Source of the DNA: Deltaproteobacteria bacterium
GTDB lineage: Bacteria > Bdellovibrionota_C > UBA2361 > JAFLCA01
NCBI GenBank assembly: GCA_017302875.1
Contig: JAFLCA010000002.1
Coordinates: 1,118-65,117 of the forward strand
Length of the DNA stretch: 64,000 bases
Direction: 5' to 3'
Shown: positions 23,860 to 51,113 of the stretch, in pieces
Layout of the letters: each line of letters starts with the position of its first letter
How positions within the stretch are numbered: position 1 is the stretch's first letter
The notes under the pieces: model-generated
Seen by the model: only the letters and a program-made list of their open reading frames with translations
Database searches by the model: none
What the model was told of the DNA's origin: nothing
Position numbers and translations under genes: made by a program

Positions 23860-25443
23860 TTACCGCTGAGAAGGAAGTTCAAATAGAATCGAGTGGGAAT
23901 CTTCGAAAAGAGGGAGAGCTTCCCCGGTTTGCTTGATAAAAATCGCAAGAGGATCGTTTGCGGGAAGCAGCAAACGATTCGCCCCACGCTCACTTAAGTA
24001 TGTCATCCAATCACTTCCCACCTTAAGAGCATCATAATAGGCGTTGTAAAAATCGTCGCCAATCATGGTTCCGCGATCATCGATGATTGCCTTCATCGAC
24101 CCCTCACCATACAGCGTAATGAAGCCGCCCCATGCTAGAGGTGCGGCAATCACAATCTGCCCCTCCGACAGAGAAGTTTCCTTTACAACGTCAAGCGCCG
24201 CATAGGGAAACCTATCAAAGCTCGGTCCAAACGGGCCTTCGTATAATAGAAGCTTACGGTTAGCAGTGCAATCGACCAGCAAAAGCAACAAAACCGCACT
24301 CAAGACCGCATATCCATGTAGCGAGCGTTTCTCGCGACTTTCAAGCAGGGAGAGCTTCTCCAAATACCACTCCGCTCTGGGGATGCGAGCGAGCAGCTCA
24401 CTGCTGCCGAGCGTTTGGAACGCATAAACCAAGGGAAGACTGACTACAATTCCGAAATACGGGACACAGCGCAGAACCGACGCGCCAAGGTGTCCAAAAA
24501 CTAGAATTGATAAAATCCCGAACCACCCAATGCGCGCACGCAGCGAAGACTCCAAGAAGAAACCAAGCAGAACCATTGCGATAGAAAATTGGAATAACTG
24601 ACCTTCCAGGCGACGGAAATCTACGGGCGCCCACTCTTCGAAATGGGTAGCTGCGAAATTTCCGAACTGTAGGAAAACCTCCTCGTGCAATCGGTATCCA
24701 TAGGGATTGCATAGGGTGGCAAGCACACAAACGCCGAGCAATAAAAACAGCGCACGGATAGAAACTTCTGTAGACAGCGACTTTCGAAGGCCACTAAAGC
24801 GATCAAGCCACACTCCCACCGGAAGCAAAGCCACAAGGAGTAAGCCTAAGGGGAAGGTCGGGTGAAGGTTTGCCCAGGCCACGAACAATAGCGGCAGAAG
24901 AAAAAACATGCGGCGAAGGGAGGCGGAAGTCTCCTCTCCACTCTGGGTCGACCGATACATCTTTGCGACATAGCCGAACACGAGCACAAAGAAGAAAAAA
25001 CCGAAAACCACCGGTCTCAGGATAAAGTGAACCTGCGCAATTTTAAATGCAACGATGAGTGCCAATGAAGATAGGAGATAACTGCCGCTCACCTGCGTCA
25101 GCGTTCTATAGAGCAGCCCAAGGAAGGTGAACGCAAACACGATCGTAAAGAAGCTATACAAGAGCGGCCACGACCCTAGATTGTACAAGGACCACAGCAG
25201 TACGTCGCTTAACCACTGAGTGGAAATCCAGGGTCGTGCAGTCTCCAAAGCTAAGAAGGGATCGCTAGTTGGAACGCTCGCATGCGAAATGCTCCAGTGT
25301 CCGGCAGCGAGGTGCCATCCCAGCCCGGGATCATCCGCAAACCCAACAAGCTGGACGGCGACAAGACTATGCAAAGCAAGCAGAACCAGGATATCTTGAA
25401 ATCCGACCGGGGACAGAAATTTATTCGGCGCTTGCGTGGTCAT
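23860..25443 (-). CDS. Large polytopic membrane protein with C-terminal periplasmic domain; putative GT-C-type glycosyltransferase
   Basis: About 527 aa from the ATG at 25443 (ORF track 25530). More than 10 hydrophobic helices with an acidic first loop (FADDPGLGWHL). Sits within the array of GT-C-like genes. Confidence 0.45.
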   Translation of the reverse strand: MTTQAPNKFLSPVGFQDILVLLALHSLVAVQLVGFADDPGLGWHLAAGHWSISHASVPTSDPFLALETARPWISTQWLSDVLLWSLYNLGSWPLLYSFFTIVFAFTFLGLLYRTLTQVSGSYLLSSLALIVAFKIAQVHFILRPVVFGFFFFVLVFGYVAKMYRSTQSGEETSASLRRMFFLLPLLFVAWANLHPTFPLGLLLVALLPVGVWLDRFSGLRKSLSTEVSIRALFLLLGVCVLATLCNPYGYRLHEEVFLQFGNFAATHFEEWAPVDFRRLEGQLFQFSIAMVLLGFFLESSLRARIGWFGILSILVFGHLGASVLRCVPYFGIVVSLPLVYAFQTLGSSELLARIPRAEWYLEKLSLLESREKRSLHGYAVLSAVLLLLLVDCTANRKLLLYEGPFGPSFDRFPYAALDVVKETSLSEGQIVIAAPLAWGGFITLYGEGSMKAIIDDRGTMIGDDFYNAYYDALKVGSDWMTYLSERGANRLLLPANDPLAIFIKQTGEALPLFEDSHSILFELPSQR

Positions 25444-25514
25444 GTCAGTGTTGTTCAGGAGAATAACAATATTTTCGCCCACGGGAAGAGTTTTCGACAG
25501 AGCATTTAAACCGC

Positions 25515-27698
25515 ATGGCGCAAGAACCATCAGCCTGTCCGCAGCCCTGCACCATTAAGCAGTTCGCCTTGCTCATAGCTGGGCTTAGTATTCTGGTCGC
25601 TTTTACCCTCGGCGCCGCCTGGATTTGCGCAGAGGATGCCGCAGCCGGTCGCATTTCGCTCAGCGTTTTACAACCCGCCGTCGATTTAATTTCGAGACAC
25701 GGCGAGCCCTGGGTGGCTCAGGCTTCCCTCGTTTTCCCTCGCATCGGGTTCGGGCTTTCCGCTGTGCTCATCCTATTAGCTTTCATTTGTCTCATTCAAC
25801 GCACCTCGCGCGCGGCGACGCTCCCGCTGATCTGCTTAAGTCTTGCAATCAGCATTCAAGTGCCTGCGCTCATGAACGAGCTACAATGGTGCATTCCCCT
25901 ACTCACGCTCCTCGGGATCCTAGTTCTGACGTCGCTTCACTTCACCACAGAGGCGCAGGAAGCATCATCTCAGGATTCACGAAGCGGCATTTTTGAAATT
26001 ACAGTCCTCTCGCTGATCGTTTTTGCAGGCGCCCTCCTGCGTCTCTACGCCCTCAATCAAGTGCCTGATAATTTCGAAGGAGAGCTCACCCCATTTTCAA
26101 TAGGGGCGACCTCAATTCCTGGAATGGTGGCGGCCAATGCCGGTGTTGGCGGACCATGGGCTCCTCTCGGGTTACTCTACTATGTGCCGATTTGGCTGAG
26201 TGCCCATCTTTACGGCACCACTATTGTTTCCTTACGTATTTCGTCCGCAATCGTCGGAATTGTCAGCATTCCTCTGCTTTATATTTTTATGCGCAGCGCA
26301 TTCAACAAGAGCGCGGCGTTGTGGGGCGCATTCTTTTTTGCGATGGATTCACTGCATGTCGGATGGAGTCGCACTGACGTACACCCACATGATGTAACGA
26401 CGTGGCCAACCATACTGCTGTGCCTTTGCACGGTGAAAGCTTTCCAGACGGGGAAAAATCTCTATTTTGCGGCGACTGCGCTGCTGATGGGGTTGACGTG
26501 GCATCAGTACCCCTCCGGACAATCGGCTTTTCTAATTCCCGTGCTTGCGCTCGTCCTTTCTCTATTCGCAGAGCCAAAGATATTTAGTCGACTTAACTGG
26601 CGACTAGGCTGGCTTGCCTTGGGCGTTACCTTGTGGGCAGTTGGACTTCCCGTCAGTTATTACGCGGCGACGGGTGAATGGCACTGGAGCAATCCTTTCA
26701 CACTGACGGGCGAACGCGCGCTCTGGGCGAATCAGCAAAGCAATCTAGAAGTTGCAGTGCAAATCGCTGAAGCGACTCTGCTGCATAGCGCCCAGTACAT
26801 CCAAGGACTATTTTATCGAGCCCCCTTCCTCTTTCACCAGGACATCCTTCCGGTTGTCCCGCCTTTCCATCCAAGAACTTTTCCCTGGATGCTGTCCGCC
26901 TGTCTTATTCCAGCTAGCTTGCTCTTACTCTCACGCCTCAATCGACGCCACGCCGGATATGCTGTGCTGGCAGCTTGGATAGTAATTGCGATTCTTCCCG
27001 GTGCGCTTTCCAAGGAACCATTTCCGAAGAGATCGGCCACATTCTATGTCGCCTTGGATTGCCTGGTTGCCGTCTACGTGGCGTGGATGCTCGCGATTTT
27101 AAAGAGACATGCCAGCAAATTCATTGTCATTCCGGTGCAGGTTGGATTGGCATCTCTGTGCGTCGCATATTTCTGCTTCTGCTCAATTCTTTGGTTTAGC
27201 GAACGTCAATGGAAGTTCGGAACCCCCGGTGAGCAGATTGTCGCAGACAGAGCTGCTCCGTTTATTCATTCCGGCACCGTGGTAATAACAGATCTCTGGG
27301 AAGACTACTCCGAGGGCAAGATCCTGTGGCTGATGCTGGATACCTTAGCCAACCCACACAATCGACCGAACGCTTGGATATTTGCGAGCCCCCCGGATAC
27401 CGAAATGTGGAAGCGCTACGCCTGCTCGCCGCGCAGTGCGGTGGAGAACCTCAACTTCAGCGCCTGGCCATATCGTTGGAGTAAACTGCGGGAGCAGGTC
27501 CCCGAGATTCAAGCCACCACAACCTGGAGCAATTCCGTCTATATTTTCAAGGATCGACGCCGCGAACGCTCGGGAGACCCTCCGCCTGCGCTCGCCGAGC
27601 TAATCGGCTGCTGCCCGCAGGCTGCTGTCACCAAGATCCCGCGCCAAGCATCTCTAACAACAGACTATTATATAGTAGAGTGCCAACGCGCATTTTAG
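25515..27698 (+). CDS. GT39/PMT_2-like (ArnT / protein O-mannosyltransferase-like) membrane glycosyltransferase
   Basis: 727 aa, polytopic. LLRLYALNQVPDNFEGE...SLRISSAIVGIVSIPLLYIFMRSAFNKSAALWGAFFFAMDSLHVGWSR matches the typical PMT_2 N-terminal pattern. Confidence 0.65.
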   Translation: MAQEPSACPQPCTIKQFALLIAGLSILVAFTLGAAWICAEDAAAGRISLSVLQPAVDLISRHGEPWVAQASLVFPRIGFGLSAVLILLAFICLIQRTSRAATLPLICLSLAISIQVPALMNELQWCIPLLTLLGILVLTSLHFTTEAQEASSQDSRSGIFEITVLSLIVFAGALLRLYALNQVPDNFEGELTPFSIGATSIPGMVAANAGVGGPWAPLGLLYYVPIWLSAHLYGTTIVSLRISSAIVGIVSIPLLYIFMRSAFNKSAALWGAFFFAMDSLHVGWSRTDVHPHDVTTWPTILLCLCTVKAFQTGKNLYFAATALLMGLTWHQYPSGQSAFLIPVLALVLSLFAEPKIFSRLNWRLGWLALGVTLWAVGLPVSYYAATGEWHWSNPFTLTGERALWANQQSNLEVAVQIAEATLLHSAQYIQGLFYRAPFLFHQDILPVVPPFHPRTFPWMLSACLIPASLLLLSRLNRRHAGYAVLAAWIVIAILPGALSKEPFPKRSATFYVALDCLVAVYVAWMLAILKRHASKFIVIPVQVGLASLCVAYFCFCSILWFSERQWKFGTPGEQIVADRAAPFIHSGTVVITDLWEDYSEGKILWLMLDTLANPHNRPNAWIFASPPDTEMWKRYACSPRSAVENLNFSAWPYRWSKLREQVPEIQATTTWSNSVYIFKDRRRERSGDPPPALAELIGCCPQAAVTKIPRQASLTTDYYIVECQRAF

Positions 27699-27716
27699 TC
27701 GCTATATCTGAGATAA

Positions 27717-29486
27717 ATGGCCGCAAACACTTCTTATAATCCAACGGCGCGAGGATCGAACCTCGCTCTTGAACTACTCCTCAACCTCCTGTTGGTGGCC
27801 GTGGTGTCGGTGGATCTTATCTCGCCCTGGTCAGTTGAAGTGTCATGGCACGCGAGCTGGATCTGGATCGCAGTTCACATCGTTCTTTTCATCGCCGCGC
27901 TCGGATCACTACTGAAGTCTCTGCTAAGACCCGTAAAATTCCTCTCCGTCATCGGCCTGGGAATCGCGCTGGCATACCTGTACCTCGCGATGGTGGATGC
28001 GAGAAACATCAGCCACGAGGCTACTCAGCAGGTTGCTTGCGTTCTAAAGAAGTGGGCGGTCCCCGATCACGCTTTTGGAGACTGGTGTTTTTTGGGATAT
28101 CCGGCTCGCTCGTACTATCTGAATGCTTTCCCCACCCTACTATTCGGTCCGAGTCAGCTGGCGTTAAATTTTGGCTTCGCGAGCTACTTCATCATTGGCT
28201 TGCTTGCCTTCGTTGGCGGAATCCTCTCGCTTTTTAAGGATAGACGCGCCGACTTGGTTGCTCTGCTCGCCGTGGCTTTACTCCTGCACTCGAATCACTT
28301 CGACGTACTCCTACTAAACTTCGAACAATCTTTCGTGCCGACAAGCTATGCGCTTATGGTGGCGGGATTCTTTCTGCATTTCGTTTCAAGCGGCCGCTCG
28401 CGATATCTAACTTTAACTGCGCTGGCATTGTATTTAAGTATTTATGCATACACGCCGGCTCTGGCTTTAAGCGTTCTCGCTCTAATTCTGTTACCGCTCT
28501 TCCTACTAAGTCCGCTCAGTATAGGGAATCGTCGCCTGGCATCGCTGCTTGGCCTAGGACTCATCGCGGGAATTATTCGCTCACTGTGGGCACGCGAAGA
28601 CTTAAAGCTAAACCCTGAGGGAGGAGTAGGCGAAGCTCTGTGGCACAAACTGGGAGAGCTGGGCTCCGCCCTCACCACGTTCACTCCGCCTGATGGGGTT
28701 ATCTCTCTGGCCTTGGCGGCCGTTCTCGGCGCTTTCACCCTACTTACCTTTGGCATATTTTTGCTGCGCCTCTATCAACTTCTGTCGCGCCGAGGCGCTG
28801 CGTCAAGCGAAGGCACATCGCTACTCATAGCAGATCCAATTTTTGCCGTTTCTGGTCTATATCTCCTGCTCTGTGTATGGGCAGCGGCAGTCGCGATTGC
28901 CTCGATCCTCTCGCCGGGATACGCAAAACCACCTCCTGCCTTTGCCATACATCGAGCCACTTTCGTGCTACCGCTTTTAATCGCCTGCGGCGCAGTCTTC
29001 GAAAGCAAGTGTCGCCGTTTTCTGACTTTGCACTACCTCGCACTCTTGGCTGCTTGCATCTATTTTGGATGGTTGGGCTGCCAGTATCTCGCTCTCCATC
29101 AGTCGCGCAAAGCGGCCGATCCAAAGATTGCCTTCTTCAAAGAACTGCGTCGGCAGTTTCCCCACAAAGAACCCGGAGATTCGATCACCATCCTGATGTC
29201 GGGCAATCTGCGCTGGCTGCTCGGGAATACCTCCGACTATGCAGAATACCTTTGGCCGCAGCTCGAATACTACTTCTATGAAACGTGCCGAGAGTTTGCG
29301 GACTTGCCCCAACGTGCGAAGGCGTCCCTCCTGATCACAGAAGCGCCTTTTCCTGATTGCGCTGCCGAGCTTGGCTGTGAAGTGGAGGCATGCGAGAATT
29401 TCTCTACGTTGCAACACACGCTCCAGGCATGCAAACTCTCAGCCTGTCGCGCTGAAACGACAGATCACCTAGAGCCCGTGAATTAG
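27717..29486 (+). CDS. Polytopic membrane protein, putative GT-C-type glycosyltransferase
   Basis: 589 aa with more than 10 hydrophobic helices and a Cys-containing soluble C-terminal domain. No diagnostic motif recognised; the call rests on context. Confidence 0.4.
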   Translation: MAANTSYNPTARGSNLALELLLNLLLVAVVSVDLISPWSVEVSWHASWIWIAVHIVLFIAALGSLLKSLLRPVKFLSVIGLGIALAYLYLAMVDARNISHEATQQVACVLKKWAVPDHAFGDWCFLGYPARSYYLNAFPTLLFGPSQLALNFGFASYFIIGLLAFVGGILSLFKDRRADLVALLAVALLLHSNHFDVLLLNFEQSFVPTSYALMVAGFFLHFVSSGRSRYLTLTALALYLSIYAYTPALALSVLALILLPLFLLSPLSIGNRRLASLLGLGLIAGIIRSLWAREDLKLNPEGGVGEALWHKLGELGSALTTFTPPDGVISLALAAVLGAFTLLTFGIFLLRLYQLLSRRGAASSEGTSLLIADPIFAVSGLYLLLCVWAAAVAIASILSPGYAKPPPAFAIHRATFVLPLLIACGAVFESKCRRFLTLHYLALLAACIYFGWLGCQYLALHQSRKAADPKIAFFKELRRQFPHKEPGDSITILMSGNLRWLLGNTSDYAEYLWPQLEYYFYETCREFADLPQRAKASLLITEAPFPDCAAELGCEVEACENFSTLQHTLQACKLSACRAETTDHLEPVN

Positions 29487-29498
29487 CATCAGACGCTT

Positions 29499-31142
29499 AT
29501 GCACCGCATCACTCTCCTTCTGTCTCTTCTCAGCCGCGCGCTTCCGGTACTCGCGCTCATTTTTCTGCTTGTCGTCGCTTGGAACCTTTCCGATTTTATC
29601 CCGATTTGGGATGGAGGTTGGTTTTTGGGCTGTGCGATGGATGCCAGCCTCAACCTAGGCGACATCTCCAAGTTCAATTGCGGCGTGCATGAACCTGCGA
29701 TTTTCTATATGGGACTGCTCGCCCTCGTGCACTACGTGAGCGGCGGCAGCTTGTCCGTGCTGCACTTCTTCAACCTTGCCCTTCTCTTCGTGGCGATGTG
29801 GGCGAGCTTCCGATTGTTGCGCAGCCTATTCCCCGCTGAAGAGAATCAACGTGAGTTGGCGCTCGTCGCGGCGATTTCGGGAACCTTCCCCATTCTGGTT
29901 GCAATTGTGTTTAACACCAGCTTGGACTTTTCTGTTGCCGTATTCCTAGTGCTGTATGCGCTGGCTATAGCAAAACGCAGCGTGCTGGGGGCTCTTCTTG
30001 CGGCGTCAGCCTTGGCCTTCTCGAAAGAGACCGGCTTGCTGATGTATGCCTTAAGTCTGCCCTTTGTGGCGCTCTTTGCAACTGAAGGTCCGCTCTTTTC
30101 AAAGCAACGTTTCCGCTCCGCGCTGCGCTACGCACCCCTGCTGCTTCCCGGAATATTTCACTTCGTCTACTTTCTCATGCGCCCCGACGGATACTCGCTG
30201 CAGGGAAAAGTGGCGACTCAATTATGTTGGACTGAAGCAAAGGAGTGGTACCAGCTGTTTCTACAACTAAACTTCAGCAGTAAGACCATTCAAAATTATC
30301 TCTTCAATATCTTCGCCCTCAACTTCAATTGGATTTTGACGGCGATTATCGCGGTAGCTTTGTTCAAAATACTGGCTGCTTTCGCGCGCGCCAAGTTCTC
30401 ACGGGCTTTTTTTGCGGTGCCAACTCAGCAAACGAGAGCACAACTGTTCGTGTTGGCACTATTCATCGTTTCAATTTACGCATCGACGCGCTGCCCCTTT
30501 TACAACAATCCAAAGTACATCGCTCCGTCACTGATGCTTTTGGCAATTGTTTCTTACGGCGCCCTGCTGCGAGTCGTGGCTTCCGCCCCCCTGCGGCAAG
30601 CCTTCCTGAGCGGCTTTTTGATTCTCAATTGCTTTTCTCTCTTTCGAACATTGGATCCAATTTCACGTTCCTACTACGGCACGATTCCCTTCGGGCAGCA
30701 CAGAATTTTACATATGACGAGCCGCACCAACGAGTGCTGCGGATACGGACAGGATCAGCTCGTATACAATCTAGAATTCACCAATTTGCACTATCTAGTC
30801 GGCGAGGCTTTTAAAGAACTCCGCATCAAGGCTTCCGATCCCTTGGTGGTCCCAACCCGAGCTTGGATGTTGCGGTTCTTCGATTCTGAATCTTGGGATC
30901 GTGGCCTGAATCCCAAGAACCCCGTCTCCTACTGGGAATTATCGGCTGACGAGGCCATACACAATGAAGACATCGGCTACGTGTATTATATCGACTACGC
31001 CTTCCACGATACTCGCGAGGACTTGGAGAAACTTCGCGGCTGCTTCCGGCAGGAGTGGCGCAAGGAATTCTTCCGGGATGGATATAGTCTACCTATATAC
31101 CGCTTTGTTCGAACGGGTAGCTGCCCCGCCAAGACACCCTAG
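29499..31142 (+). CDS. Polytopic membrane protein, putative GT-C-type glycosyltransferase
   Basis: 547 aa, polytopic N-terminal two-thirds (...LALVAAISGTFPILVAIVFNTSLDF...AFSKETGLLMY) plus a soluble C-terminal domain. The call rests on context. Confidence 0.45.
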   Translation: MHRITLLLSLLSRALPVLALIFLLVVAWNLSDFIPIWDGGWFLGCAMDASLNLGDISKFNCGVHEPAIFYMGLLALVHYVSGGSLSVLHFFNLALLFVAMWASFRLLRSLFPAEENQRELALVAAISGTFPILVAIVFNTSLDFSVAVFLVLYALAIAKRSVLGALLAASALAFSKETGLLMYALSLPFVALFATEGPLFSKQRFRSALRYAPLLLPGIFHFVYFLMRPDGYSLQGKVATQLCWTEAKEWYQLFLQLNFSSKTIQNYLFNIFALNFNWILTAIIAVALFKILAAFARAKFSRAFFAVPTQQTRAQLFVLALFIVSIYASTRCPFYNNPKYIAPSLMLLAIVSYGALLRVVASAPLRQAFLSGFLILNCFSLFRTLDPISRSYYGTIPFGQHRILHMTSRTNECCGYGQDQLVYNLEFTNLHYLVGEAFKELRIKASDPLVVPTRAWMLRFFDSESWDRGLNPKNPVSYWELSADEAIHNEDIGYVYYIDYAFHDTREDLEKLRGCFRQEWRKEFFRDGYSLPIYRFVRTGSCPAKTP

Positions 31143-31233
31143 GAATCCACCCCCAAGTTTCGATCAGGACATAAAGCAAGCCGCCCGGGGCTCCAGATAG
31201 TTCTTTTTTCCGAGAAAAAGAGTTAATCTTTCC

Positions 31234-35295: not shown

Positions 35296-35301
35296 AAGGC
35301 A

Positions 35302-41566: not shown

Positions 41567-41812
41567 GAGGTACCTGGAATTTAAGGAACTGTATTAACAG
41601 CGGTTTTTTCTAAAGCTAGCCGGTTTAGGCAGTAACTTCAATAAGTTAAATAACTTAGTCGTCAGCTTTTAGATGCGGCTAAACGACAAACTCCAGACTC
41701 AAATTAACGCAATAATATTAGTGGGTTAAAGATTATTTGAAGCATTGTTATATTTCCTGCTGATAGATAAGTGGGGGACAGGGTGTGAAGTGTGCAATCG
41801 CGAGAGATTCGT

Positions 41813-42358
41813 ATGCGTGTGTCATCAAAATCCCCCCTTCGAGAACGCGGCGGCGTTATCACCGAGTGCGTGCTGGTAATCCCCGTCATGCTGGTTCTCT
41901 TTACCGGCCTTACTGAGCTGGGTCGAACCTTCTCCCAGATAAACTGGGTCGCCAATATTTCCTACGAAGTTGCTATGGTCGGCGCCAGCGTATCCGAGAC
42001 TGCCGGTGGCGCGCTTGCAATGGACGGGCGCTATGCTCAGCTTAGTGCGATTCCGTACTACAAAGTCACCTTGCCGAGCGATCCAACCTCCAAGGTCTAC
42101 AATCAGACTGACCTACACGTCAGCGGGCAACCACCTCGAAGCGTTGAAGTTGCTATCCATGCGACACTACCCACGTTGCTGTCACATGTATCACCCACCT
42201 TTGACGTACGCGCGACCGCGCCGATTTTGGTGCTTTCGAATGTGCTCCCGGGGGGACTCAGCACCTTTAGCAATCCAAATCCGCTTTATGACTGCTGCGG
42301 CCGCGAGTATTCGGGCGCGCCCATTGATACGTGCTTGAATCCCCCGCCCGCTTGCTAG
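41813..42358 (+). CDS. TadE-like pseudopilin-type protein (cassette A, gene 1)
   Basis: MRVSSKSPLRERG|GVITECVLVIPVMLVLFTGLTELGR is a TadE-type N-terminus with Glu at +5 after the Gly. The upstream GTG at 41792 is an alternative start. The C-terminus is Cys/Pro-rich. Confidence 0.65.
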   Translation: MRVSSKSPLRERGGVITECVLVIPVMLVLFTGLTELGRTFSQINWVANISYEVAMVGASVSETAGGALAMDGRYAQLSAIPYYKVTLPSDPTSKVYNQTDLHVSGQPPRSVEVAIHATLPTLLSHVSPTFDVRATAPILVLSNVLPGGLSTFSNPNPLYDCCGREYSGAPIDTCLNPPPAC

Positions 42359-42502
42359 TTGAACGCTAAGATACTCCATTGAGGAAAGGCGACACGCGCA
42401 ATAGAATCAATGGATTAAGCGGCCCGCGATCTTTTTAAGCCCTTTTTGATAGAACTGTGTCGTACGCTGGTGCGGCGCTTTGGACTTTAAACAAGTCGGT
42501 AC

Positions 42503-43900: not shown

Positions 43901-43958
43901 GTTGATGCAGACTTTTGACCTGCCTCACATTGCGAATAGTCTCTAAGAGGTTTTAGCT

Positions 43959-46184
43959 ATGCGCCAAGAAAAAGGTCTCTATATCGTATTCTTCGCTCTC
44001 CTGCTTTTCGTGCTGCTCGGATTAGTGGCGCTGGCGCTCGGCCTCGGCTACATCGGCACTAATAAGACTCGCCTGCAAAATGGCGTCAACTTAGCCGCTC
44101 TCGCGGCGCTTGAGAAATTCGCCGGTTTACCTCAGAGCGATTCGTACCTAGTGCGCGCCGACAAAGCCCGCGATCGGGCGAGTGAGATTTTTGCAGCAAA
44201 TATTTTACCCGGTGTAGAGCACCCCTTGGGAGAACTTGGCCACCATGGCGCAGCCGGGCCCGGTGGAACAATTACCCTTGGCAACTGGTATCAGAAGAAA
44301 CCAAATCCCGTCGACGATCCCTGCACGGGAAGCTACCCCTGCTTCGTCGCGAACCCCGATCCAAGCGGTTCCGTGCCTAACAACCAACCAATGAATGCAG
44401 TGCGTATTGAAGCCCACAATCAAAGCAACAATCCGCTGCTTTTCAGACTTGGAAGATTTTTAGGAAAAGATAGCTTCATCCTGTCGTCGAGCGCCACAGC
44501 GACGGTCGTTCCACGCTGTACCGCGTACTTGATGGACGTTAGCGATTCATCTTACTTCGAAACTCATCCAACGTTGCCGATTGGATCAAGCCAGGTAAAT
44601 TCCTGCATTACTCCTGGCAGTGTTCCCCCGGCCTGCCCGGACCCTAGCTGCCTTCCCGGATGTTTAGCCGGAGAACCTGCATGTTATGGCGGCTGTAATC
44701 CTTACAAAACAGCGAATTTAAGCGTCACACCGATTAATTTTGGTCTTGGCGCATATCGGTATAGCCCTCAGTACACGCCAACTCATTTGGAATGCGCAGC
44801 TTCGACGAACTACGATCTGGGCAACCAACTTTCCCGTCAGACAGTGTATTGGTGTAACTCGCCTCATATTGGCGCCCCTGATGGAGCACGTCCCGGCGTT
44901 CCACCTTCCTCAGGCATCTTCCGTCACTATCAGTCAGACTATGAACTAGAAGATTCACCGCTTCCAGGAGGCGGCGTTGGTCAAATCTGGGTTGATAAAC
45001 TGTATGTCGCAGGGGCAACGGCGGCAGACCCAGTGTACGATGGTCCGCAACCCTTCACTCGGAATTTTTTGGCCTTCAACGCCGGGCTGCGACAAGTTCA
45101 GTCCACGACAGTTGGCGGAGATCTTTCCTATATCATGGCTTTCACCGGACAGCCGCGCAGTTCAGTTCCAGCCACGGGATTAACTTCGGATTTGGGATTC
45201 CTGATTCAATTAACCAATCTCGACAACCGTGGAAAAAGAGATTGGCAAGGCGTTCCTGTAACTACAGAAATCCACCCCAATTTTATTGATTTCGGCTGGG
45301 CACCGTTTCCGGGCGAAGGATTCGACTCAACCAGCGCGATTGGAAATGCTGTGTATTTCGCAGCCGAGCGCCTTCACTCCAGCTGCCCGTCGCAGTCGCG
45401 CAAAACTATTTTGCTGGCATCTGACGGACAAGCCAACACTCACTTCGGCGCGATTCCGGAACCGCAGGGCCTAAACGGATACAACAACTATGTCGCAGCC
45501 GTAAATCAACTTCTTAATACTTCGATCCCGGTACTCGGCGGCGGCCCCAATAAACCGCCGATTCTACAGATGCTCAAAGAGTATGAAATTTCATTCTCGA
45601 TGATTATGGACGGGTTCCATATTGCACCGAACTTTCTCAACATAGCGAGCGGTGAGTGCGGAGCGGCGTCGACTTGGACACCGGGTTCCGGCTTCGGAAA
45701 TGACGACCCGAAGTGCTATTTTTCCTTTCAGGAAGGTTACGCGCACGGCTTTGGCGGCAAACGTTCCCCTTCGCCCCTGTTTGACTGGGAAAGCTACGAC
45801 CCCTCTGGAACACCGACCGATCCAGCGACCGCGTACGACAACGCCGGAAGAATTCCTGGCTGGTCATTCGGAGATCCGATTGGGGTATGGAGCGACGTTG
45901 CGCTGGAGACCGGCGGGTATTTCTGCCCACTTCTGGCAGTTGCGCCAGTCGGGCAGTATGTCGACTTTTATGGCGATCGCGGCGGAGCTGCTTGTGATGC
46001 TCCCTGTCCAGGCGGGGTAAATTGCAGCCCCTGTGTACTACGCAGCGCGGCACGAAATCCCAATCCAGGTCAAAACATTCAGAAGTTTGCACCGCAGTAC
46101 ACTAGGAAAAGCGAGCAGGCAGCGCAGTGCGCGCGTCAGGCAGTTGGACTCAATCCATTTACCCTGGTCGAGAAAGACAATTAA
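43959..46184 (+). CDS. TadG-like protein with N-terminal hydrophobic helix and vWA domain (cassette A, gene 3)
   Basis: 741 aa. MRQEKGLYIVFFALLLFVLLGLVALALGLGYIG matches the Tad/TadG N-terminal pattern. MIDAS DVSDS at 44535-44549, later LLASDGQAN. Good AAGAGG Shine-Dalgarno. Confidence 0.7.
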   Translation: MRQEKGLYIVFFALLLFVLLGLVALALGLGYIGTNKTRLQNGVNLAALAALEKFAGLPQSDSYLVRADKARDRASEIFAANILPGVEHPLGELGHHGAAGPGGTITLGNWYQKKPNPVDDPCTGSYPCFVANPDPSGSVPNNQPMNAVRIEAHNQSNNPLLFRLGRFLGKDSFILSSSATATVVPRCTAYLMDVSDSSYFETHPTLPIGSSQVNSCITPGSVPPACPDPSCLPGCLAGEPACYGGCNPYKTANLSVTPINFGLGAYRYSPQYTPTHLECAASTNYDLGNQLSRQTVYWCNSPHIGAPDGARPGVPPSSGIFRHYQSDYELEDSPLPGGGVGQIWVDKLYVAGATAADPVYDGPQPFTRNFLAFNAGLRQVQSTTVGGDLSYIMAFTGQPRSSVPATGLTSDLGFLIQLTNLDNRGKRDWQGVPVTTEIHPNFIDFGWAPFPGEGFDSTSAIGNAVYFAAERLHSSCPSQSRKTILLASDGQANTHFGAIPEPQGLNGYNNYVAAVNQLLNTSIPVLGGGPNKPPILQMLKEYEISFSMIMDGFHIAPNFLNIASGECGAASTWTPGSGFGNDDPKCYFSFQEGYAHGFGGKRSPSPLFDWESYDPSGTPTDPATAYDNAGRIPGWSFGDPIGVWSDVALETGGYFCPLLAVAPVGQYVDFYGDRGGAACDAPCPGGVNCSPCVLRSAARNPNPGQNIQKFAPQYTRKSEQAAQCARQAVGLNPFTLVEKDN

Positions 46185-46414
46185 ATCGGGCGTTCCCTAG
46201 CGTGCGTTTACGCATCAAAACCTCTTACCGAGGGAGCTGAACGGCTCTGCGCAGGGTGAAAATCTACGAGTTTTTCCTAGTATGGCTACGATGTACTTGG
46301 ATTTCTCGCCAGTTACCGCACTTCACCTGAAGCAAAAGTAAACTACCCCCTCTAAAGAGCCGATAGGTGACATAGGAGCTTCATGCTGGGGCTTCTTAAA
46401 CATATTGTGAAATC

Positions 46415-47230
46415 ATGCGTGACTACACTTCATTGAGTCCTCGTTCCCTCAAGCGAGCTAACATGAAAGGTTCAGTCCTGCTGGAGTTCGCTATCGTCGT
46501 GCCCCTTCTGGTGGTCTTTTTTCTGGGCATCTCCGGAATTGGACAGCTACTTGGGCATGTAACTTGGATCTCACAAACGACCTACGCTGCGGCTCTCTTC
46601 GCAGCCGACGTGCCGCAGCCTGACGGGCCAGCTAAAGTTCAGCAAGCTACCGAGCGTTTAAGCGAAGCTCAAAATCGAGGTCAAGTCAGCGGTGATTGGA
46701 ATGCGCCAGTCTACACCGTAGGACAGATCACAGGCAAACCCATTGTAAGCGTAAGCGTCCCTGCGAATGTTTCGCCTCTCGTAAGCGCCATGTTTTCATC
46801 CAGTATCGGTGTGAGCGTAGCAGCTCCCTACCTTGTACCGAGCCAAGCAGCCTTCGCTGGGTTTAACGATTTTGCCAATCCCTCTGGCATCGTTACCTGC
46901 TATGCAGCCTCTTGTAACCCGATCGCACCGTATAATCCCGGGATTAGGAAAATAACCACCTTACCGGGTGAGACGAATTACGCTTACTATAATCCCACGA
47001 ACGAAGAGTCCACGAGAGCTTTTGAAACCTTTATGTCCACCATGGGCGGCCTGGATCGAAGTAGTCCGACTTACATAGAGGATGCTGCTGCTACGTACGA
47101 GAAGCTTATGTCAGCTTTTGAGGGTGCTATTTCCAACGATCCCTCGCTAGCCAAAGCGCTGACTCGATTGGACCCGATGACGACTGAATCGAAAAAAAGC
47201 ACCCGTACAGAGTATACGATTCTAGATTAG
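46415..47230 (+). CDS. TadE-like pseudopilin-type protein (cassette B, gene 1)
   Basis: 271 aa. ...SLKRANMKG|SVLLEFAIVVPLLVVFFLGISGIGQ TadE-type N-terminus with Glu at +5. Confidence 0.65.
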   Translation: MRDYTSLSPRSLKRANMKGSVLLEFAIVVPLLVVFFLGISGIGQLLGHVTWISQTTYAAALFAADVPQPDGPAKVQQATERLSEAQNRGQVSGDWNAPVYTVGQITGKPIVSVSVPANVSPLVSAMFSSSIGVSVAAPYLVPSQAAFAGFNDFANPSGIVTCYAASCNPIAPYNPGIRKITTLPGETNYAYYNPTNEESTRAFETFMSTMGGLDRSSPTYIEDAAATYEKLMSAFEGAISNDPSLAKALTRLDPMTTESKKSTRTEYTILD

Positions 47231-47339
47231 AACCTAAGGGCTTGGCCGCACTGACATTTACCGGGGTGATAGGGGCGTGCTAAGGTAAGTATTCTGTATA
47301 AGAATGCGTGCTGATTAAAAGACTTACCCTGGGGAAAGT

Positions 47340-48818
47340 TTGAGCTTCCCGTTTCGTAAAATTTTCCGATTGCCGCCTGCCTTGGCCCGCTGGGGTTCCC
47401 AGCGCTCAGAGCTTGGCGCCTCCATTCTGGAAGCGGCTATCTCCCTGCCGATCTTCTTCTTATTTATTTTCTTCTTGATCGATCTCGCCCGGTACTTTTT
47501 CATCTACGCGATTCTGAACTATGCGGCGTACAGCGGAGTGGATCTCGCTTCAAAACTCGAAGTTGAAGCCAATACAACTGTCACCGGCTGTGCCGCAGAA
47601 TCGACCCCCTGTGCTCGTTATGGAAATTCAGTCGCCTCCATTTTAGATCGCACTACACGCCTCGCGTATTTAGTTGCGAGCCCCTCAACCGTCGCAAGCG
47701 GAGCTCGACTACAGTCATTCGCTCACTACGTTCCTTCGATGTACGACAGTGGGCAGAACAATTCGGGCCTTAGTCCGTTTTTAACGGTACCCTTTTCAAA
47801 AGATGCTGCTTTTCTTCGTCCGGGAGAAGTCGTTTGTCGTAATGGAACCTGCGATTCGCCTAACCAGGTTCAGCACAACTTTCGAGAGTACGGAACCGGA
47901 ATTGGAAAAGGCTGGCCTTCAGACAATGAAAACTGGGCGTCGATTCTAGAAAGCTCCCCCTTAGAGATGCGACTTGAAGCAGAGTTTACGCCGGTTACTC
48001 CATTCTTCCCACACCTTAGAATTCACGCCGTGCAGTACGCCTACCGCAGCGTGAAGAAGGCGGGCCGCCCCTATAGCTTCGTCTCGGCACCCACAAATGC
48101 GCCTTCAGCAACTTCGACGATGACACCGACCTCCACCCCGGTGCCGCCTTCACCGACACCGCCCGTCACGCCTACGGCGACCCTCTCTCCGACGACGACG
48201 GTAACTCCGACAGCCACCAGCAGTCCGACGGCAACAACGAGTCCGACCGCGACCATTACGCCGACTAATAGCCCAACAGCCACGCAGACCCCGACTGCAA
48301 CGAATTCGCCGACGGCCACAAACAGCCCGACGGCGACGAGCACTCCGACTTTGAGCCCAACTGCGACTAGAAGCCCGACGCCAACTCAGACCCCCACGGC
48401 GACGAACAGTCCAACACCAACTGCGACACCTTCAAATTCGCCAACATTTACGTACTCGCCAACTGCAACACACACGCCAACGGCGACTAGTACGGCAACG
48501 CCAACCGTCACTCCGACTTTCACCCCGACGGCTACGTCGTCGCCAACAGCAACACAGAGCCCGACGCCAACGTTATCGCCAACCCCAACAGCTACGGGAA
48601 CTGTTACTCCGACAGCGACACTCTCGCCGACGGCTACCATTACCCCAACGGCAACTTCAACGCCGACAGCGACACAGCGTCCTGAGTGCGCCAACTGCGC
48701 TTGCGGAAACACCGGGTCATGCTGCAGCCAGGCGGGGATGATGTATGTGTGTAACGTACTTTGTGGTGGCATTCCGCTGTGCGGTCAAGCGAATTGCTGC
48801 CCAGGAACGGGCGGATAG
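47340..48818 (+). CDS. TadE-like N-terminus + globular domain + Thr/Pro-rich stalk + Cys-rich tail (cassette B, gene 2); paralog of 42503-43900
   Basis: 492 aa with TTG start. ...SELG|[28 protein letters not shown] at the N-terminus. Residues about 250-447 are T/P/S/A-rich. The tail is [43 protein letters not shown]. Confidence 0.75.
48087..48680 (+). repeat. Degenerate in-frame ACN/CCN repeat region encoding the Thr/Pro stalk
   Basis: SPTATxSPTAT / [11 protein letters not shown] peptide units. Opposite-strand V/G-rich ORFs are artefacts. Confidence 0.85.
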
Positions 48819-48866
48819 TGCGCAAATTGCTTGGCATAGGATAGGATTTTTATAGTAAGAATTTTT

Positions 48867-51113
48867 ATGAAAATCTCGGCGAATCACTCCAAGAATGAGA
48901 AAGAACGGGGACTATATCTAATCCTCGTGGCTTTTTTCATTTTCGTTCTTGTTGCCCTGTGCGGCCTGGTGATTGGTCTTGGGTTTCTCTCTACCAATCG
49001 CTCTCGCCTTCAGAACATTGCTAATGTCAGCTCTATAGCGGCACTCGACGGCTTCATCCAAGCTCGCAATCCTTCTACAGGGGATCCCTTGGCGTACGAT
49101 GTTCGAAAGACTGTCGCGATGAACCGCGCCAATGAACTAATTGTGGCGAATAAGAAACTACCGGGAGTCCGGTTTGATCTTGGGGAAGTTGGACTGGCCC
49201 CTGCAGGAGGCAATGGCGGTAAACTAACAGTCGGAATGTGGTATCCGGAAATACCCGCTACCGGAACACCGTGCGGAGCCAATGCCTCCGACTACCCTTG
49301 CTTCCGGGAGAATCCGGTCGTGCCCACAGGAACGCCGATAGCCAATGCGGTGAGACTCGAAGTATTCAGTCAACCGACAAATCCTCTAATTGCTCCCTTC
49401 GCATCCTTTTTTGGTCAACATGGAATTACTCTTAACACGACCAGCATTGCCCGCGTCGTTCAACGTTGCGTAGTGTTCCTGCTAGACGTTTCACTATCCA
49501 CAGTTCAGGAGACTCATTTATACGGCAGAAATGCGCCTGCCCCGCTGCCTCCCGATCCGGCATGCATTCCTCCGGAGCTCGGTGGAGCCTGCACGCCGTT
49601 GATGCAGGTGACGCTCGCTCCGACGCCGGCACTGGTTATCAGCGAACCGCAGCCGCCATCGCTTTTTGCCTATCGCGTAAGTGCGCTTGGCCCGCTTGCA
49701 TCGCGCACTCCGCCGCTGACTCCGCCACCATTTCCAACGCCGAACCCGTGTCAGAATCTGACGAGCTATTGGGCGGCCAATTCCGGGGAAGATCTGCTCT
49801 ATTTTTGTAATATGAAGACTTCGCGTACGGGATTTATGTCCCCGCCGTATGTTCAGCATTATCGCTCAGATTACCGGATCCACCCCTCGATATTTGGCGA
49901 CGTCTTCATTGATAAATACGAGGAGAATATCAACACGTACGTTGGTCCAGAACCGCTTAGCCGATTCTTCCTTTCCTTTAACGCGGGGCTGCGTGCGGTT
50001 AATCAGGTGCGATCGCCTGGCGACAAGGCGCTGCTATACGTGTTTACGGGCAAAGCAGTCGGCACAGAGCCGCAATCCACGCCTCCAACCTACGAACTGA
50101 CCGAGAACCTAAATTCGCTTATTCAACTGACAAATATTTACAACCGTGGAACCATCGATCGAAACGGAGCCATCGTACACCCAGTCGTAACTCCGAACTT
50201 CGTATCACGCGGATTTTTCCCGATTCTTGCTTCGAGCGCTGACACCATTAGCACCACTACGAACTTAGGCCTGGCACTTTGGGACGCGATTGGAGCCCTC
50301 AGCAGCTGCCCGGACTCTGCTCGACGTTCCATCATCGTAGCCACAGACGGGATTCCGAGTTGTGGTTGGAATACACAAGGCAGCCTTAACGGCACCCCGC
50401 GTCCCGATCCCATTTTTGACTGCCCTCCACCGACGAACGGCGATTACTACACCAATTACCTTCAGGCAGAACAATCCATTCTTGGCCCCATCAAGGATGA
50501 ACTGGTCCGACGCGGCATTTCAGTGACTGCGCTGCTCGACGCTGAAAACATTCAACCAAATTTTATAAATGCAACGATTCCTCCCGGAGCCGGCACACCG
50601 ACAGGAGACTTTGTGGACCCTGAAGATGCCGCTCAGAACGGATTCTGCGCCGGAGTTCCAACTCCGATTGGAGGCGGCGCCGCACCTTGCGATAAACCAT
50701 TCTTCCTCTCTAGCCCTGTAATTCCTGACGAGGCACTGGGCCCGTACAATGCCTGGGTGGCAGGCGGACCCTCAGCCCCCGTGGACTACGATCATTTCGC
50801 ATTCAAGTACAGCGACACCCCAAATTTAGGAGTCAAATTCCGCCGTCCCAACGCACTATGGGGACAGCTTGCACTCGACACCCAAGGCGTCATTTGCCCG
50901 TTATTGCCAGAGTGTCCTCCACAGGCGTACGCTCCGGGAATTCCTCCAAATCCGCCGCAGATATTGCCGACCTGGAGACAAGGTATGTCCGTTATGGACT
51001 GCTCTCCAGCCAAACAGAGTAAGGCGCAACAAGCGGTGAACTGCGTGCTTGCAGCGATTGGCGTGAACCCATATCAGAACGTCGAAGAAATTCCTCCAAC
51101 CGTTGCTCCATAA
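48867..51113 (+). CDS. TadG-like protein with vWA domain (cassette B, gene 3); paralog of 43959-46184
   Basis: 748 aa. KERGLYLILVAFFIFVLVALCGLVIGLGFLS at the N-terminus. MIDAS DVSLS at 49485-49499, later IVATDGIPS. Colinear with 43959-46184 over the whole length. Confidence 0.7.
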   Translation: MKISANHSKNEKERGLYLILVAFFIFVLVALCGLVIGLGFLSTNRSRLQNIANVSSIAALDGFIQARNPSTGDPLAYDVRKTVAMNRANELIVANKKLPGVRFDLGEVGLAPAGGNGGKLTVGMWYPEIPATGTPCGANASDYPCFRENPVVPTGTPIANAVRLEVFSQPTNPLIAPFASFFGQHGITLNTTSIARVVQRCVVFLLDVSLSTVQETHLYGRNAPAPLPPDPACIPPELGGACTPLMQVTLAPTPALVISEPQPPSLFAYRVSALGPLASRTPPLTPPPFPTPNPCQNLTSYWAANSGEDLLYFCNMKTSRTGFMSPPYVQHYRSDYRIHPSIFGDVFIDKYEENINTYVGPEPLSRFFLSFNAGLRAVNQVRSPGDKALLYVFTGKAVGTEPQSTPPTYELTENLNSLIQLTNIYNRGTIDRNGAIVHPVVTPNFVSRGFFPILASSADTISTTTNLGLALWDAIGALSSCPDSARRSIIVATDGIPSCGWNTQGSLNGTPRPDPIFDCPPPTNGDYYTNYLQAEQSILGPIKDELVRRGISVTALLDAENIQPNFINATIPPGAGTPTGDFVDPEDAAQNGFCAGVPTPIGGGAAPCDKPFFLSSPVIPDEALGPYNAWVAGGPSAPVDYDHFAFKYSDTPNLGVKFRRPNALWGQLALDTQGVICPLLPECPPQAYAPGIPPNPPQILPTWRQGMSVMDCSPAKQSKAQQAVNCVLAAIGVNPYQNVEEIPPTVAP

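Follow-up and report, generated by a model that had tools for sequence, protein, structure and literature searches.

In an uncultured Bdellovibrio-like bacterium, we found a 27-kb block in which no fewer than six membrane sugar-transferases and a GT2/mutase pair adjoin pilus-like proteins with very long Thr/Pro stalks. The whole block behaves as one island, and its glycosylation machinery is real and unusual; very probably, it performs periplasmic glycosylation by GT-C enzymes that draw on lipid-phosphate-linked sugars. More tentatively, we read the region from 23.9 to 51.1 kb of the window (the whole stretch of 64,000 nucleotides analysed) as a single envelope-glycosylation island running on lipid-phosphate sugar donors, with likely acceptors including the Thr/Pro-rich (PT) stalks encoded beside it. 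The machinery is confirmed, and the stalks are plausible substrates. All open reading frames named in an initial annotation of this DNA were found at their coordinates (23860–51113), and the features are as follows.

22548–23993, minus: VKOR-DsbA fusion (periplasmic disulfide oxidation), a context gene and the conserved neighbour of M1
23860–25530, minus: M1, GT-C glycosyltransferase without family assignment (AlphaFold2 model and Foldseek)
25515–27698, plus: M2, GT-C glycosyltransferase (PMT_2, E 1.4e-9, 38.8 bits)
27717–29486, plus: M3, polytopic membrane protein of putative GT-C-like architecture
29499–31142, plus: M4, GT-C glycosyltransferase of an unnamed family (profile–profile match to the M5 N-module)
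31234–35295, plus: M5, two fused GT-C modules, N-terminal PMT/PMT_2-like and C-terminal DUF2298/TIGR03662 'YYY'
35302–37350, plus: M6, stand-alone DUF2298 GT-C protein (DUF2298, 173.5 bits)
37381–39366, minus: M7, TIGR03663 (Agl23 family) GT-C-like protein (219 bits versus a cut-off of 126)
39415–40776, minus: UGM, eukaryote-type UDP-galactopyranose mutase, makes UDP-Galf (PDB 4dsg match)
40790–41566, minus: GT2s, soluble or peripheral ArnC/GtrB/DPMS-like GT2, predicted polyprenyl-P-Galf synthase
41567–41791, no strand: intergenic gap separating GT2s from the divergently transcribed cassette 1
41792–42358, plus: TadE-like pseudopilin, short form, cassette 1 (PF07811, 25.6 bits versus a cut-off of 22.9)
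42503–43900, plus: TadE-like pseudopilin with PT stalk and Cys-rich C-terminal knob, cassette 1 (PF07811, 34 bits)
43271–43816 (aa 257–438): cassette-1 stalk, candidate acceptor (78 Thr, 13 Ser and 39 Pro in 182 aa)
43959–46184, plus: TadG-like protein, cassette 1 (PF13400, 35.3 bits, and Tad_C)
46415–47230, plus: TadE-like pseudopilin, short form, cassette 2 (PF07811, 24.5 bits)
47340–48818, plus: TadE-like pseudopilin with PT stalk and Cys-rich knob, cassette 2 (PF07811, 41.3 bits)
48075–48686 (aa 246–449): cassette-2 stalk, candidate acceptor (78 Thr, 27 Ser and 43 Pro in 204 aa)
48867–51113, plus: TadG-like protein, cassette 2 (PF13400, sub-threshold, 19.2 bits)

The initial annotation had placed the glycosyltransferase genes divergent from the Tad cassettes, which holds for the GT2s-UGM-M7 operon alone; M2–M6 are co-oriented with the cassettes and convergent toward M7. 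The only promoter-like site in the divergent gap of 225 bp is weak, lies on the minus strand and is no more than shuffled sequence yields. It had also counted seven GT-C-like membrane proteins, six of which were established as GT-C by family models (M2, M5, M6 and M7), AlphaFold models (M1 and the DUF2298 module) and profile–profile comparison (M4). The exception, M3, has about 13 hydrophobic segments ahead of a soluble C-terminal part, matched nothing in Pfam or the PDB, and aligned with the M4 family at an hhalign probability of only 35% (E 4e-4).

M1 had no match in Pfam or NCBIfam. Its AlphaFold2 model (52-sequence alignment; pLDDT 93.2) gave STT3 as the best Foldseek match (E 4.6e-8, TM 0.53), together with DPY19, AglB, PglB and ArnT, and on this model M1 is a GT-C glycosyltransferase; its D51, after TM1, is nearly invariant. 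M1 orthologues adjoin the VKOR-DsbA gene in five compared loci (L001, L003, L005, L006 and L095). M4 is likewise assigned to GT-C by profile comparison: its family (551 representatives in a library of 1.84 billion proteins), in which D38 of a WDG motif is invariant and 3 of 70 members matched PMT_2, aligned with the PMT-like N-module of M5 over 276 columns (96.7% probability, E 4e-10). M2 matched the same module (hhalign 85.9%), as did M7 (86%). M5 itself, with 539 homologues spread over several phyla, carries a PMT (GT39-type) domain in its N-module (PF02366, 41 bits), and its C-module scored 439 bits for TIGR03662 (cut-off 300); the AlphaFold2 model of the DUF2298 module (pLDDT 93.9) matched DPY19, AftA and STT3, and M6 aligned with the C-module at 100% (E 8.5e-55). 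No characterised role was found for DUF2298 partner proteins in the literature searched. M7, in which HHDES and LHGP motifs are present, is a candidate user and/or translocator of lipid-linked sugar. Experiments have tied Haloarcula Agl23 to the use of Glc/Gal-P-Dol (Dol-P-hexose) in both N- and O-glycans, and in liposomes the protein translocated a lipid-linked glycan (PMC11182771).

The neighbours of these genes form two triads, each encoding a short TadE-like protein, a TadE-like protein with a PT stalk and a TadG-like protein. The long Thr/Pro stalks noticed earlier are borne out, with 78 Thr per stalk in about 180–200 residues. In the stalked protein of cassette 1, the prepilin-type motif G-A-S-x-x-E is invariant. 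Between the cassettes, the short TadE-like proteins share 27% identity, and the cassette-2 TadG-like protein shares 31% with TadG1 over its full length.

The co-occurrence of the two gene sets across genomes, a check proposed in the initial annotation, was found in part. In four lineages only (the window, L003, L008 and L012), whose proteins share 32–65% identity, GT2s-UGM-M7 has a Tad cassette as its immediate neighbour, and the PT stalks are retained. In L095, transketolase abuts M1, indicating that the glycosyltransferase genes and Tad cassettes together occupy one insertion site. The four lineages, however, also have in common the transketolase, AhpC, hydrolase and parE/parC (topoisomerase IV) flanks, so that shared ancestry accounts equally well for the adjacency. 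Moreover, glycosylation modules lacking Tad genes are found in other relatives and phyla (GT2s-UGM-M7 in L067 and L071, M5/M1 cores in L004, L005, L006, L095 and L096), and three short metagenomic Tad cassettes (L087–L089) have no GT2s within 750–1800 bp upstream; the stalk of L088 is Gly/Thr/Ala-rich rather than PT-rich. The Tad cassette is both younger than the machinery core (M5/M1 and the GT2s-UGM pair) and more restricted in its distribution, and the machinery as a whole is not dedicated to PT stalks. Glycosylation of the stalks by the island is accordingly put forward as plausible, falling somewhat short of probable.

The same distribution bears on a competing explanation, possible though on the doubtful side, in which the island builds or modifies an envelope glycan after export (LPS core, O-antigen, exopolysaccharide or another lipid-linked polymer), in the manner of the mycobacterial Emb/Aft arrays or of a three-component system of the Gtr, Arn or pentofuranose kind; on this view the Tad cassettes would be unrelated neighbours kept by descent, and the PT stalks plain spacers. 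Consistent with it are the far wider spread of the core and the gene company it keeps elsewhere. In Cytophagales, the GT2s-UGM pair is grouped with O-acyltransferase genes (Acyl_transf_3 and MBOAT), pointing to polysaccharide modification, and in L006 and L096 the M5/M1 homologues lie amid sugar-nucleotide, carbamoyltransferase, GT1 and GT87 genes. The M1–M5 interval, moreover, varies among close relatives like a serotype locus: it holds M2–M4 in the window, is empty in L003 and L008, and in L001 contains other GT-C genes along with genes for a GDSL protein and a GT2. M2, with no orthologue found among relatives, sits in a variable segment missing from L003, L008 and L012. AftA and ArnT among the structural matches fit this explanation as well, whereas the presence of the peptide-acting GT-Cs STT3 and DPY19 among the best matches speaks, with weak discrimination, against it. 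More directly opposed are the single insertion site, with both gene sets together in four lineages, and the lack of O-antigen ligase, Wzy, Wzz and ABC exporter genes within the island.

The mutase at 39415–40776 was correctly recognised in the initial annotation as forming UDP-Galf, but it is of the eukaryotic type. It aligned over its full length with the Trypanosoma cruzi enzyme (PDB 4dsg; 47.7% identity, E 3e-136) and also with Aspergillus fumigatus UGM (E 1e-134). Assignment as the usual bacterial Glf was rejected (TIGR00031, 18 bits versus a cut-off of 304).

GT2s (258 aa), described earlier as Dpm1/Ppm1-like, is indeed of the polyprenyl-phosphate-transferase type. Its family profile aligned nearly full length with ArnC (E 2.8e-21, positions 4–228 of 248), long alignments were also obtained with GtrB and DPMS, and the aligned part takes in a ...H-x-E-R-x-x-G-x-S... 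segment, where PVTHxERxTGxVS of GT2s meets PVHHAEREFGESK of ArnC. In 41 of 80 bacterial loci, from Bdellovibrionota, Bacteroidota, Verrucomicrobiota, Planctomycetota and CPR, GT2s immediately precedes UGM, an adjacency that suggests an undescribed polyprenyl-P-galactofuranose donor; on balance, we slightly favour polyprenyl-P-Galf as the lipid donor. Bacterial galactofuranosyltransferases known so far take UDP-Galf directly. WpsC/WpsF provide an example (PMC10821137). In line with this precedent, GT2s could be an ordinary cytoplasmic Leloir galactofuranosyltransferase with UDP-Galf as its donor and a lipid-PP-linked oligosaccharide as its acceptor; no polyprenyl-P-Galf would then be formed, and the GT-C enzymes would take other donors or polymerise and ligate the finished glycan. 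GT2s lacks TM helices, its scores to ArnC (52 versus an equivalog cut-off of 529) and AglJ are under the curated cut-offs, and no report of polyprenyl-P-Galf was found in the literature searched. We nevertheless consider this unlikely: non-polyprenyl GT2 enzymes match the GT2s profile over the first ~105 residues only, in contrast to the near end-to-end alignment with ArnC, and GT-C genes, dependent on lipid-P donors, often flank the GT2s-UGM pair (L007, L031, L058, L067, L071, L076 and L078).

Broad O-glycosylation of many exported proteins, the adjacent pseudopilins being just two of them, would suit the PMT domain of M5, the STT3/DPY19 likeness of M1 and the DUF2298 module, the N- and O-glycan roles of the Agl23 family and an exported 843-aa protein with a PT-rich linker that adjoins VKOR/M1/M5 in L005, but it is improbable, the last being a single anecdotal neighbour and no further PT-rich ORF being found in the other UGM loci.

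Under the preferred reading of one island with lipid-phosphate donors, the eukaryote-type mutase would convert UDP-Galp to UDP-Galf, and the ArnC/DPMS-like GT2s would transfer the sugar to polyprenyl phosphate on the cytoplasmic face, giving polyprenyl-P-Galf. The donor would then reach the periplasmic face, M7 being the best candidate for translocation, first transfer, or both, and M1, M2, M4, M5 (with two modules), M6 and probably M3 would glycosylate periplasmic acceptors. In this clade, the likeliest acceptors may include the 180–200-residue stalks of the two TadE-like pseudopilins, presumably anchored by the prepilin-type N-terminal helix with the stalk exposed to the periplasm. Of the O-glycosylation logic initially proposed, the loading of a lipid-phosphate sugar by a GT2 and its use by GT-C enzymes agree with the enzyme identities, and the stalks as acceptors are plausible only.

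Collectively, the island belongs, as a variant, among the three-component systems for periplasmic glycosylation. As in GtrABC, ArnC/ArnT and the pentofuranose extracytoplasmic systems (Kelly et al. 2024; PMC11194591), a cytoplasmic GT2 would make a polyprenyl-monophosphate sugar for periplasmic GT-C transfer. The island differs in its predicted sugar, a hexofuranose (Galf) from a eukaryote-type mutase, in having no GtrA- or MATE-type dedicated flippase gene within it, and in carrying six to seven GT-C proteins where those systems have one; unlike ArnC and GtrB, GT2s lacks the C-terminal TM helices. Haloarchaeal Agl22/Agl23 are similar in that M7 exceeds the TIGR03663 cut-off and the gene for a DPMS-like GT2 is close by. 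The pairing of TIGR03662 with TIGR03663 genes known from Archaea and Chloroflexi recurs in the M5 C-module and M7, both above cut-offs; here, however, the host is a Gram-negative bacterium, the lipid carrier presumably undecaprenyl rather than dolichyl, and a mutase gene lies between GT2s and M7. The analogy drawn initially with actinobacterial Ppm1/Pmt (GT39) holds for the functional logic of a lipid-P-sugar synthase with a PMT-type GT-C (PF02366 in the M5 N-module) that would act on Thr/Pro-rich exported proteins, but not as orthology (Pmt equivalog NF058602, 25 bits versus a cut-off of 800); the sugar differs, PMT is fused to DUF2298, and the host is Gram-negative. Mycobacterial Emb/Aft arrays likewise comprise several GT-C paralogues using a polyprenyl-P-furanose donor, with AftA among the best matches of the DUF2298 module, but they build a polysaccharide (arabinan) and have no sequence-level relationship to the island, and mycobacteria add Galf from UDP-Galf in the cytoplasm. 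By description, Pseudomonas aeruginosa TfpW also resembles the island and offers a precedent in favour of the preferred reading: this GT-C, encoded beside the pilin gene, O-links furanose from a lipid-phosphate donor to pilin Ser/Thr in the periplasm (bioRxiv 10.1101/2020.04.19.049825; PMC11194591). Its target, however, is the major type IVa pilin and its glycan D-Araf oligomers made from PRPP, whereas here the candidate acceptors, TadE-type pseudopilins, carry long PT stalks, and the donor would derive from UDP-Galf.

The genes form one island flanked by housekeeping genes, and the ORFs named in the initial annotation were all found as described. The island encodes seven membrane proteins (M1–M7, 23860–39366), a mutase (hereafter UGM, 39415–40776), a 258-residue GT2 (hereafter GT2s, 40790–41566), and two Tad-like cassettes, arranged as follows.

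Features of the island (window positions)
22548–23993, minus strand: VKOR-DsbA fusion
23860–25530, minus strand: M1
25515–37350, plus strand: M2 to M6, with gaps of 6 to ~90 nt
37381–41566, minus strand: M7-UGM-GT2s operon
225 bp: divergent gap between GT2s and cassette 1
41792–51113, plus strand: two tandem triads (cassettes 1 and 2) of TadE-like, TadE-like with PT stalk, and TadG-like genes
51177–53168, minus strand: transketolase

The glycosylation genes had been described as divergent from the cassettes, which applies to GT2s-UGM-M7 alone; M2–M6 share the orientation of the cassettes. In the divergent region, the number of sites from a promoter and terminator scan did not exceed that of shuffled sequence, and an Rfam search of the island returned no RNA element. 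Recent horizontal transfer of the island was rejected because its GC content (0.50–0.56 throughout) equals that of the flanks. The AT skew, −0.13 to −0.22 over M2–M6 (26000–36000) and +0.18 to +0.20 over M1 and M7-UGM, follows the coding strand of the membrane proteins rather than reflecting replication. The island has no flippase gene of the GtrA or MATE type. The window contains one flippase-like gene only, for a Wzx-like/MATE membrane protein; it lies roughly 35 kb from the island, in a separate small glycan-related cluster (3370–8204) that also has genes for a GT2 and a member of the type I phosphodiesterase family. The listed start of this Wzx-like ORF (3370) overlaps an opposite-strand cobalamin riboswitch match (3291–3476, minus strand; 76 bits), so that the ORF probably begins further downstream than listed; the riboswitch lies upstream of genes for a TonB-dependent receptor and a periplasmic binding protein (381–3184).

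The 453-residue UGM matched only generic flavoprotein models in Pfam and scored 18 bits against the bacterial Glf model TIGR00031, far below its cut-off of 303.75. In the PDB, it aligned end to end with the UGMs of T. cruzi (E = 3e-136) and A. fumigatus (E = 1e-134), and showed 47.7% identity with the former over 442 aligned positions, including the identical segments GGHV, FRFP, YPTP, RGRFG.W.YE, and NQDHSFMQG. Eukaryotic UGMs are 47–60% identical to one another and 14–18% identical to the bacterial class (PMC3624792). These alignments with solved structures support the earlier designation of a UDP-Galf-forming mutase, and indicate that it belongs to the eukaryotic class; what Pfam alone would suggest, an amine oxidase or phytoene-desaturase-like flavoprotein of a generic kind, was rejected on the same PDB match. 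An exact-sequence look-up of UGM gave no match. Among species-representative genomes, a single scan confirmed the eukaryote-type enzyme in at least 591, with hits in Bdellovibrionota, Bacteroidota, Verrucomicrobiota, Planctomycetota, Sumerlaeota, Chthonomonadales, and CPR. The eukaryote-type UGM is common rather than rare in bacteria, and this abundance is relevant to where the fungal and kinetoplastid enzyme, a drug target, came from.

The description of GT2s as a Dpm1-like GT2 agreed with profile comparisons. Its family profile matched ArnC best in the PDB (E = 2.8e-21), nearly over the full length (positions 4–228 of 248), as well as GtrB over positions 3–185 and archaeal DPMS over 2–214, whereas non-related GT2s matched over the first ~105 residues only. 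The D100-S-D102 (DxD) motif is invariant, as are H206, R209, and G212, which align with the H-x-E-R-x-x-G of ArnC; the GT2s segment PVTHxERxTGxVS corresponds to ArnC PVHHAEREFGESK. However, GT2s has no TM helix and scores only 52 bits against the ArnC equivalog NF007986 (cut-off, 529). Thus, judged by its profile, GT2s is assigned as a DPM1/ArnC-type enzyme distinct from ArnC orthologues.

The genes for these two proteins recur as a pair. When a GT2s homologue was required to be at least 45% identical and to lie within 400 bp of the mutase, it directly preceded UGM in 41 of the 80 loci kept, spanning Bacteroidota, Verrucomicrobiota, Planctomycetota, Bdellovibrionota, and CPR. In several phyla, the pair has GT-C neighbours (loci L007, L031, L058, L067, L071, L076, and L078); in Cytophagales, the genes beside it are Acyl_transf_3 and MBOAT instead. 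HMMs built from the window GT-Cs found GT-C neighbours of UGM in at least 8 of the 80 loci, a lower bound because Pfam finds more. GT2s-UGM is a two-gene module conserved across phyla and apparently uncharacterised, and this phylum-spanning association of a GT2 with a eukaryote-type mutase is the most robust new element of the analysis. In the simplest reading of these sequences, the pair would make polyprenyl-P-Galf; no report of such a donor was found in the literature searched.

All seven membrane proteins had been proposed to be GT-C enzymes. Family models, AlphaFold2 models, and hhalign confirmed six of them, leaving M3, which is polytopic and of the right size for a GT-C but gave only a weak hhalign hint (35%). 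Pfam and NCBIfam models support four: M2 (PMT_2), M7, M6, and M5, a fusion protein whose N-terminal part matches PMT/PMT_2 and whose C-terminal part matches DUF2298/TIGR03662. The M5 N-module exceeded the cut-off of the generic domain PF02366 (41.4 versus 22.7), and the C-module that of TIGR03662 (439 bits versus 300.25), with an invariant Y171-Y172-Y173 (YYYxG motif). M6 passed Pfam DUF2298 (173.5 versus 27.8) and missed the TIGR03662 cut-off (205.7 versus 300.25). M1, M3, and M4 had no Pfam match even at E = 10, and the sequences of M3, M4, and M7, like the M4 family profile, matched nothing in the PDB.

Structure prediction and profile–profile comparison extended these assignments. The AlphaFold2 model of M1 from a 52-sequence alignment (pLDDT 93.2, pTM 0.92) matched STT3, DPY19, AglB, ALG12, PglB, and ArnT in the PDB with a Foldseek probability of 1.0, and that of the M5 C-module (pLDDT 93.9) matched DPY19, AftA, STT3, AglB, and PglB with the same probability. 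On this model, the DUF2298 family therefore adopts the GT-C fold, which makes M5 a double GT-C and M6 a GT-C as well. The M4 family is unnamed and counts 551 representatives; of 70 members, 3 touched PMT_2. Its profile matched the PMT-like module of M5 with 96.7% probability (E = 4e-10, 276 columns, hhalign). By the same method, the M5 N-module paired with M7 (86%) and M2 (86%), and the M5 C-module with M6 (100%). Calling the seven proteins paralogs was nevertheless an overstatement, as all-against-all BLAST gave no recent paralogues except M6 and the M5 C-module. Each verified GT-C protein keeps an acidic residue right after the first hydrophobic helix, such as D51 (nearly invariant) in M1, D38 (invariant) in M4, a nearly invariant H-P-D-E in the M5 N-module, E140 (invariant) and D161 (nearly invariant) in its C-module, and HHDES in M7; by predicted topology, these residues would lie in the first extracytoplasmic loop. 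Homologues of the PMT–DUF2298 fusion in other phyla (P0025 and P0044–P0076, from Schekmanbacteria and others) often carry inserted NHL/SMP-30-type beta-propellers and reach 1500–2300 residues.

M7 scored 219.3 bits against the NCBIfam model TIGR03663, above its curated cut-off of 126.25, and carries 'HHDESLHG' and 'LLHGPF'. Members of this family have DE and HGP motifs close to their N-termini. Agl23 of Haloarcula hispanica also belongs to TIGR03663, and the purified protein translocates lipid-linked oligosaccharide in liposomes; its partner Agl22 is named there simply as an N-glycosylation-pathway glycosyltransferase (PMC11182771).

All four TadE-like ORFs passed the PF07811 cut-off, and a putative prepilin-type site (G18-A-S-x-x-E23; Gly at −1, Glu at +5) is invariant in five orthologues. 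Both long TadE-like proteins consist of a prepilin-type N-terminus, a conserved domain of ~230 residues, a stalk with 78 Thr and ~40 Pro that spans 182 or 204 residues, and a Cys-rich tail of 30–45 residues. The two cassettes are 27–41% identical in protein sequence and represent old duplicates. Beyond these triads, the 64-kb window has no Tad machinery gene: an ATPase, a secretin, TadB/C, Flp, and a prepilin peptidase are all absent. The stalks should face the periplasm, where the active sites of GT-C enzymes lie, and the VKOR-DsbA fusion, though a general enzyme, could oxidise the Cys knobs of the stalked proteins.

In L003, L008 (same organism as L092), and L012 (same organism as L094), a Tad cassette again lies divergent from GT2s-UGM-M7, with M6-M5 next; protein identities there are 32–77%, and the PT stalks and Cys knobs are kept. 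However, the four lineages with this adjacency, including that of the window, also share the housekeeping backbone, so that descent by itself could account for it. In L067 and L071, GT2s-UGM-M7 is present but Tad genes are absent, and the same holds for the M5/M1 cores of L004, L005, L006, and L096. Searches of the other 77 mutase loci with HMMs of the three Tad proteins gave no additional copy. The core enzymes are clearly older than the cassette. A metagenome scan with the N-domain of the stalked TadE-like protein yielded five short contigs only, and a word-indexed protein search yielded five proteins. In three short metagenomic cassettes (L087–L089), GT2s was absent from the 750–1800 bp upstream, and in one of them (L088, 1741–3126), (Gly-Thr-Ala)n and EGF-like Cys modules take the place of PT in the stalk; another (L087, 1390–2904) has two PT blocks with a Cys-rich module between them. 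The backbone of a more distant relative (L095, GCA_020635175.1) consists of parC, parE, a hydrolase, AhpC, transketolase, M1, and VKOR; a PMT-type gene lies beyond RpiA instead. Its transketolase directly abuts the M1 homologue (7939–11509), and the block at 25.5–51.1 kb of the window is absent, indicating that M2–M6, M7-UGM-GT2s, and both cassettes fill one insertion site.

Several further features of the surrounding region were observed. The VKOR-DsbA fusion adjoins M1 in every relative examined (L001, L003, L005, L006, and L095), down to 33–35% identity. The slot between M1 and M5 is variable: it holds M2–M4 in the window (25515–31142), nothing in L003, L005, and L008, and three other GT-Cs, a GDSL-like gene, and another GT2 in the closest relative (L001, 2106–9867; M5 73% identical), a pattern that resembles serotype-type variation. 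An SDR gene and a 369-residue GT2 (18202–20106) stay paired close to the VKOR/M1/M5 core in all relatives (L003–L006 and L011); the best NCBIfam match of the SDR is mycolate reductase, below cut-off, and PEPCK lies between this pair and the core in the window, L003, L004, and L005. In the last, an Oligoflexia MAG without a Tad cassette at this place, an exported 843-residue protein (4235–6766) with a Lys-rich and PT-rich N-terminal linker sits between PEPCK and VKOR/M1/M5, adding a second protein with a PT tract to the surroundings of the GT-C core.

The initial annotation proposed that GT-C enzymes O-glycosylate the PT stalks in the periplasm, and the machinery part of this proposal is well supported. 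In the proposed mechanism, the ArnC-like GT2 and the eukaryote-type UGM would produce polyprenyl-phospho-galactofuranose, lipid-linked galactofuranose being the most likely sugar donor; the GT-C battery, including two orphan families (DUF2298/TIGR03662 and the Agl23-type TIGR03663), would use this donor to form Galf-containing O-glycans on the 180–200-residue Thr/Pro stalks of the Tad-type pseudopilins. The stalks are plausible candidate acceptors because of their topology, because they belong to the one island, and because there is a precedent in TfpW of P. aeruginosa, a GT-C enzyme encoded beside the pilin gene that adds D-arabinofuranose (bioRxiv 10.1101/2020.04.19.049825). Modification of a glycan, with the cassettes as unrelated neighbours, fits the results equally, and a system acting on polysaccharide only is a possibility that we take seriously while doubting it. 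The pseudopilin stalk as acceptor is the most striking and least secure element: the full chain ending on the stalks is held tentatively, at somewhat less than even confidence, and the joint claim that the pair makes polyprenyl-P-Galf and that the GT-Cs build Galf O-glycans on pseudopilin stalks in this clade is unlikely to hold in its entirety. If true, the polyprenyl-P-Galf scheme would apply to at least 41 species-level genomes of many phyla that carry the pair, and would offer the first biochemical handle on the large orphan families DUF2298/TIGR03662 and TIGR03663. The host, by its nearest relatives an uncultured Bdellovibrionota/Oligoflexia-like organism, belongs to a lineage of predatory bacteria, in which Tad-like surface fibres may matter in prey contact.

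Compared with known systems, the parallel drawn initially with actinobacterial Ppm1/Pmt holds as an analogy of logic but not as family membership, the M5 N-module scoring 25.4 bits against the Pmt equivalog NF058602 (cut-off, 800). With M7 in the Agl23 family, the window repeats in a bacterium the TIGR03662/TIGR03663 pairing of Archaea, with a DPMS-like GT2 alongside and a mutase gene lying between this GT2 and M7. Were the stalked TadE-like proteins the acceptors, they would represent a second case of pilus-component glycosylation by GT-Cs, independent of TfpW. Three-component systems have so far involved hexopyranoses and, since 2024, pentofuranoses (PMC11194591), and the scheme would extend to galactofuranose if the pair makes polyprenyl-P-Galf. 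Collectively, the island may be regarded as a periplasmic glycosylation system on the known three-component, GT-C-dependent theme, with new elements.
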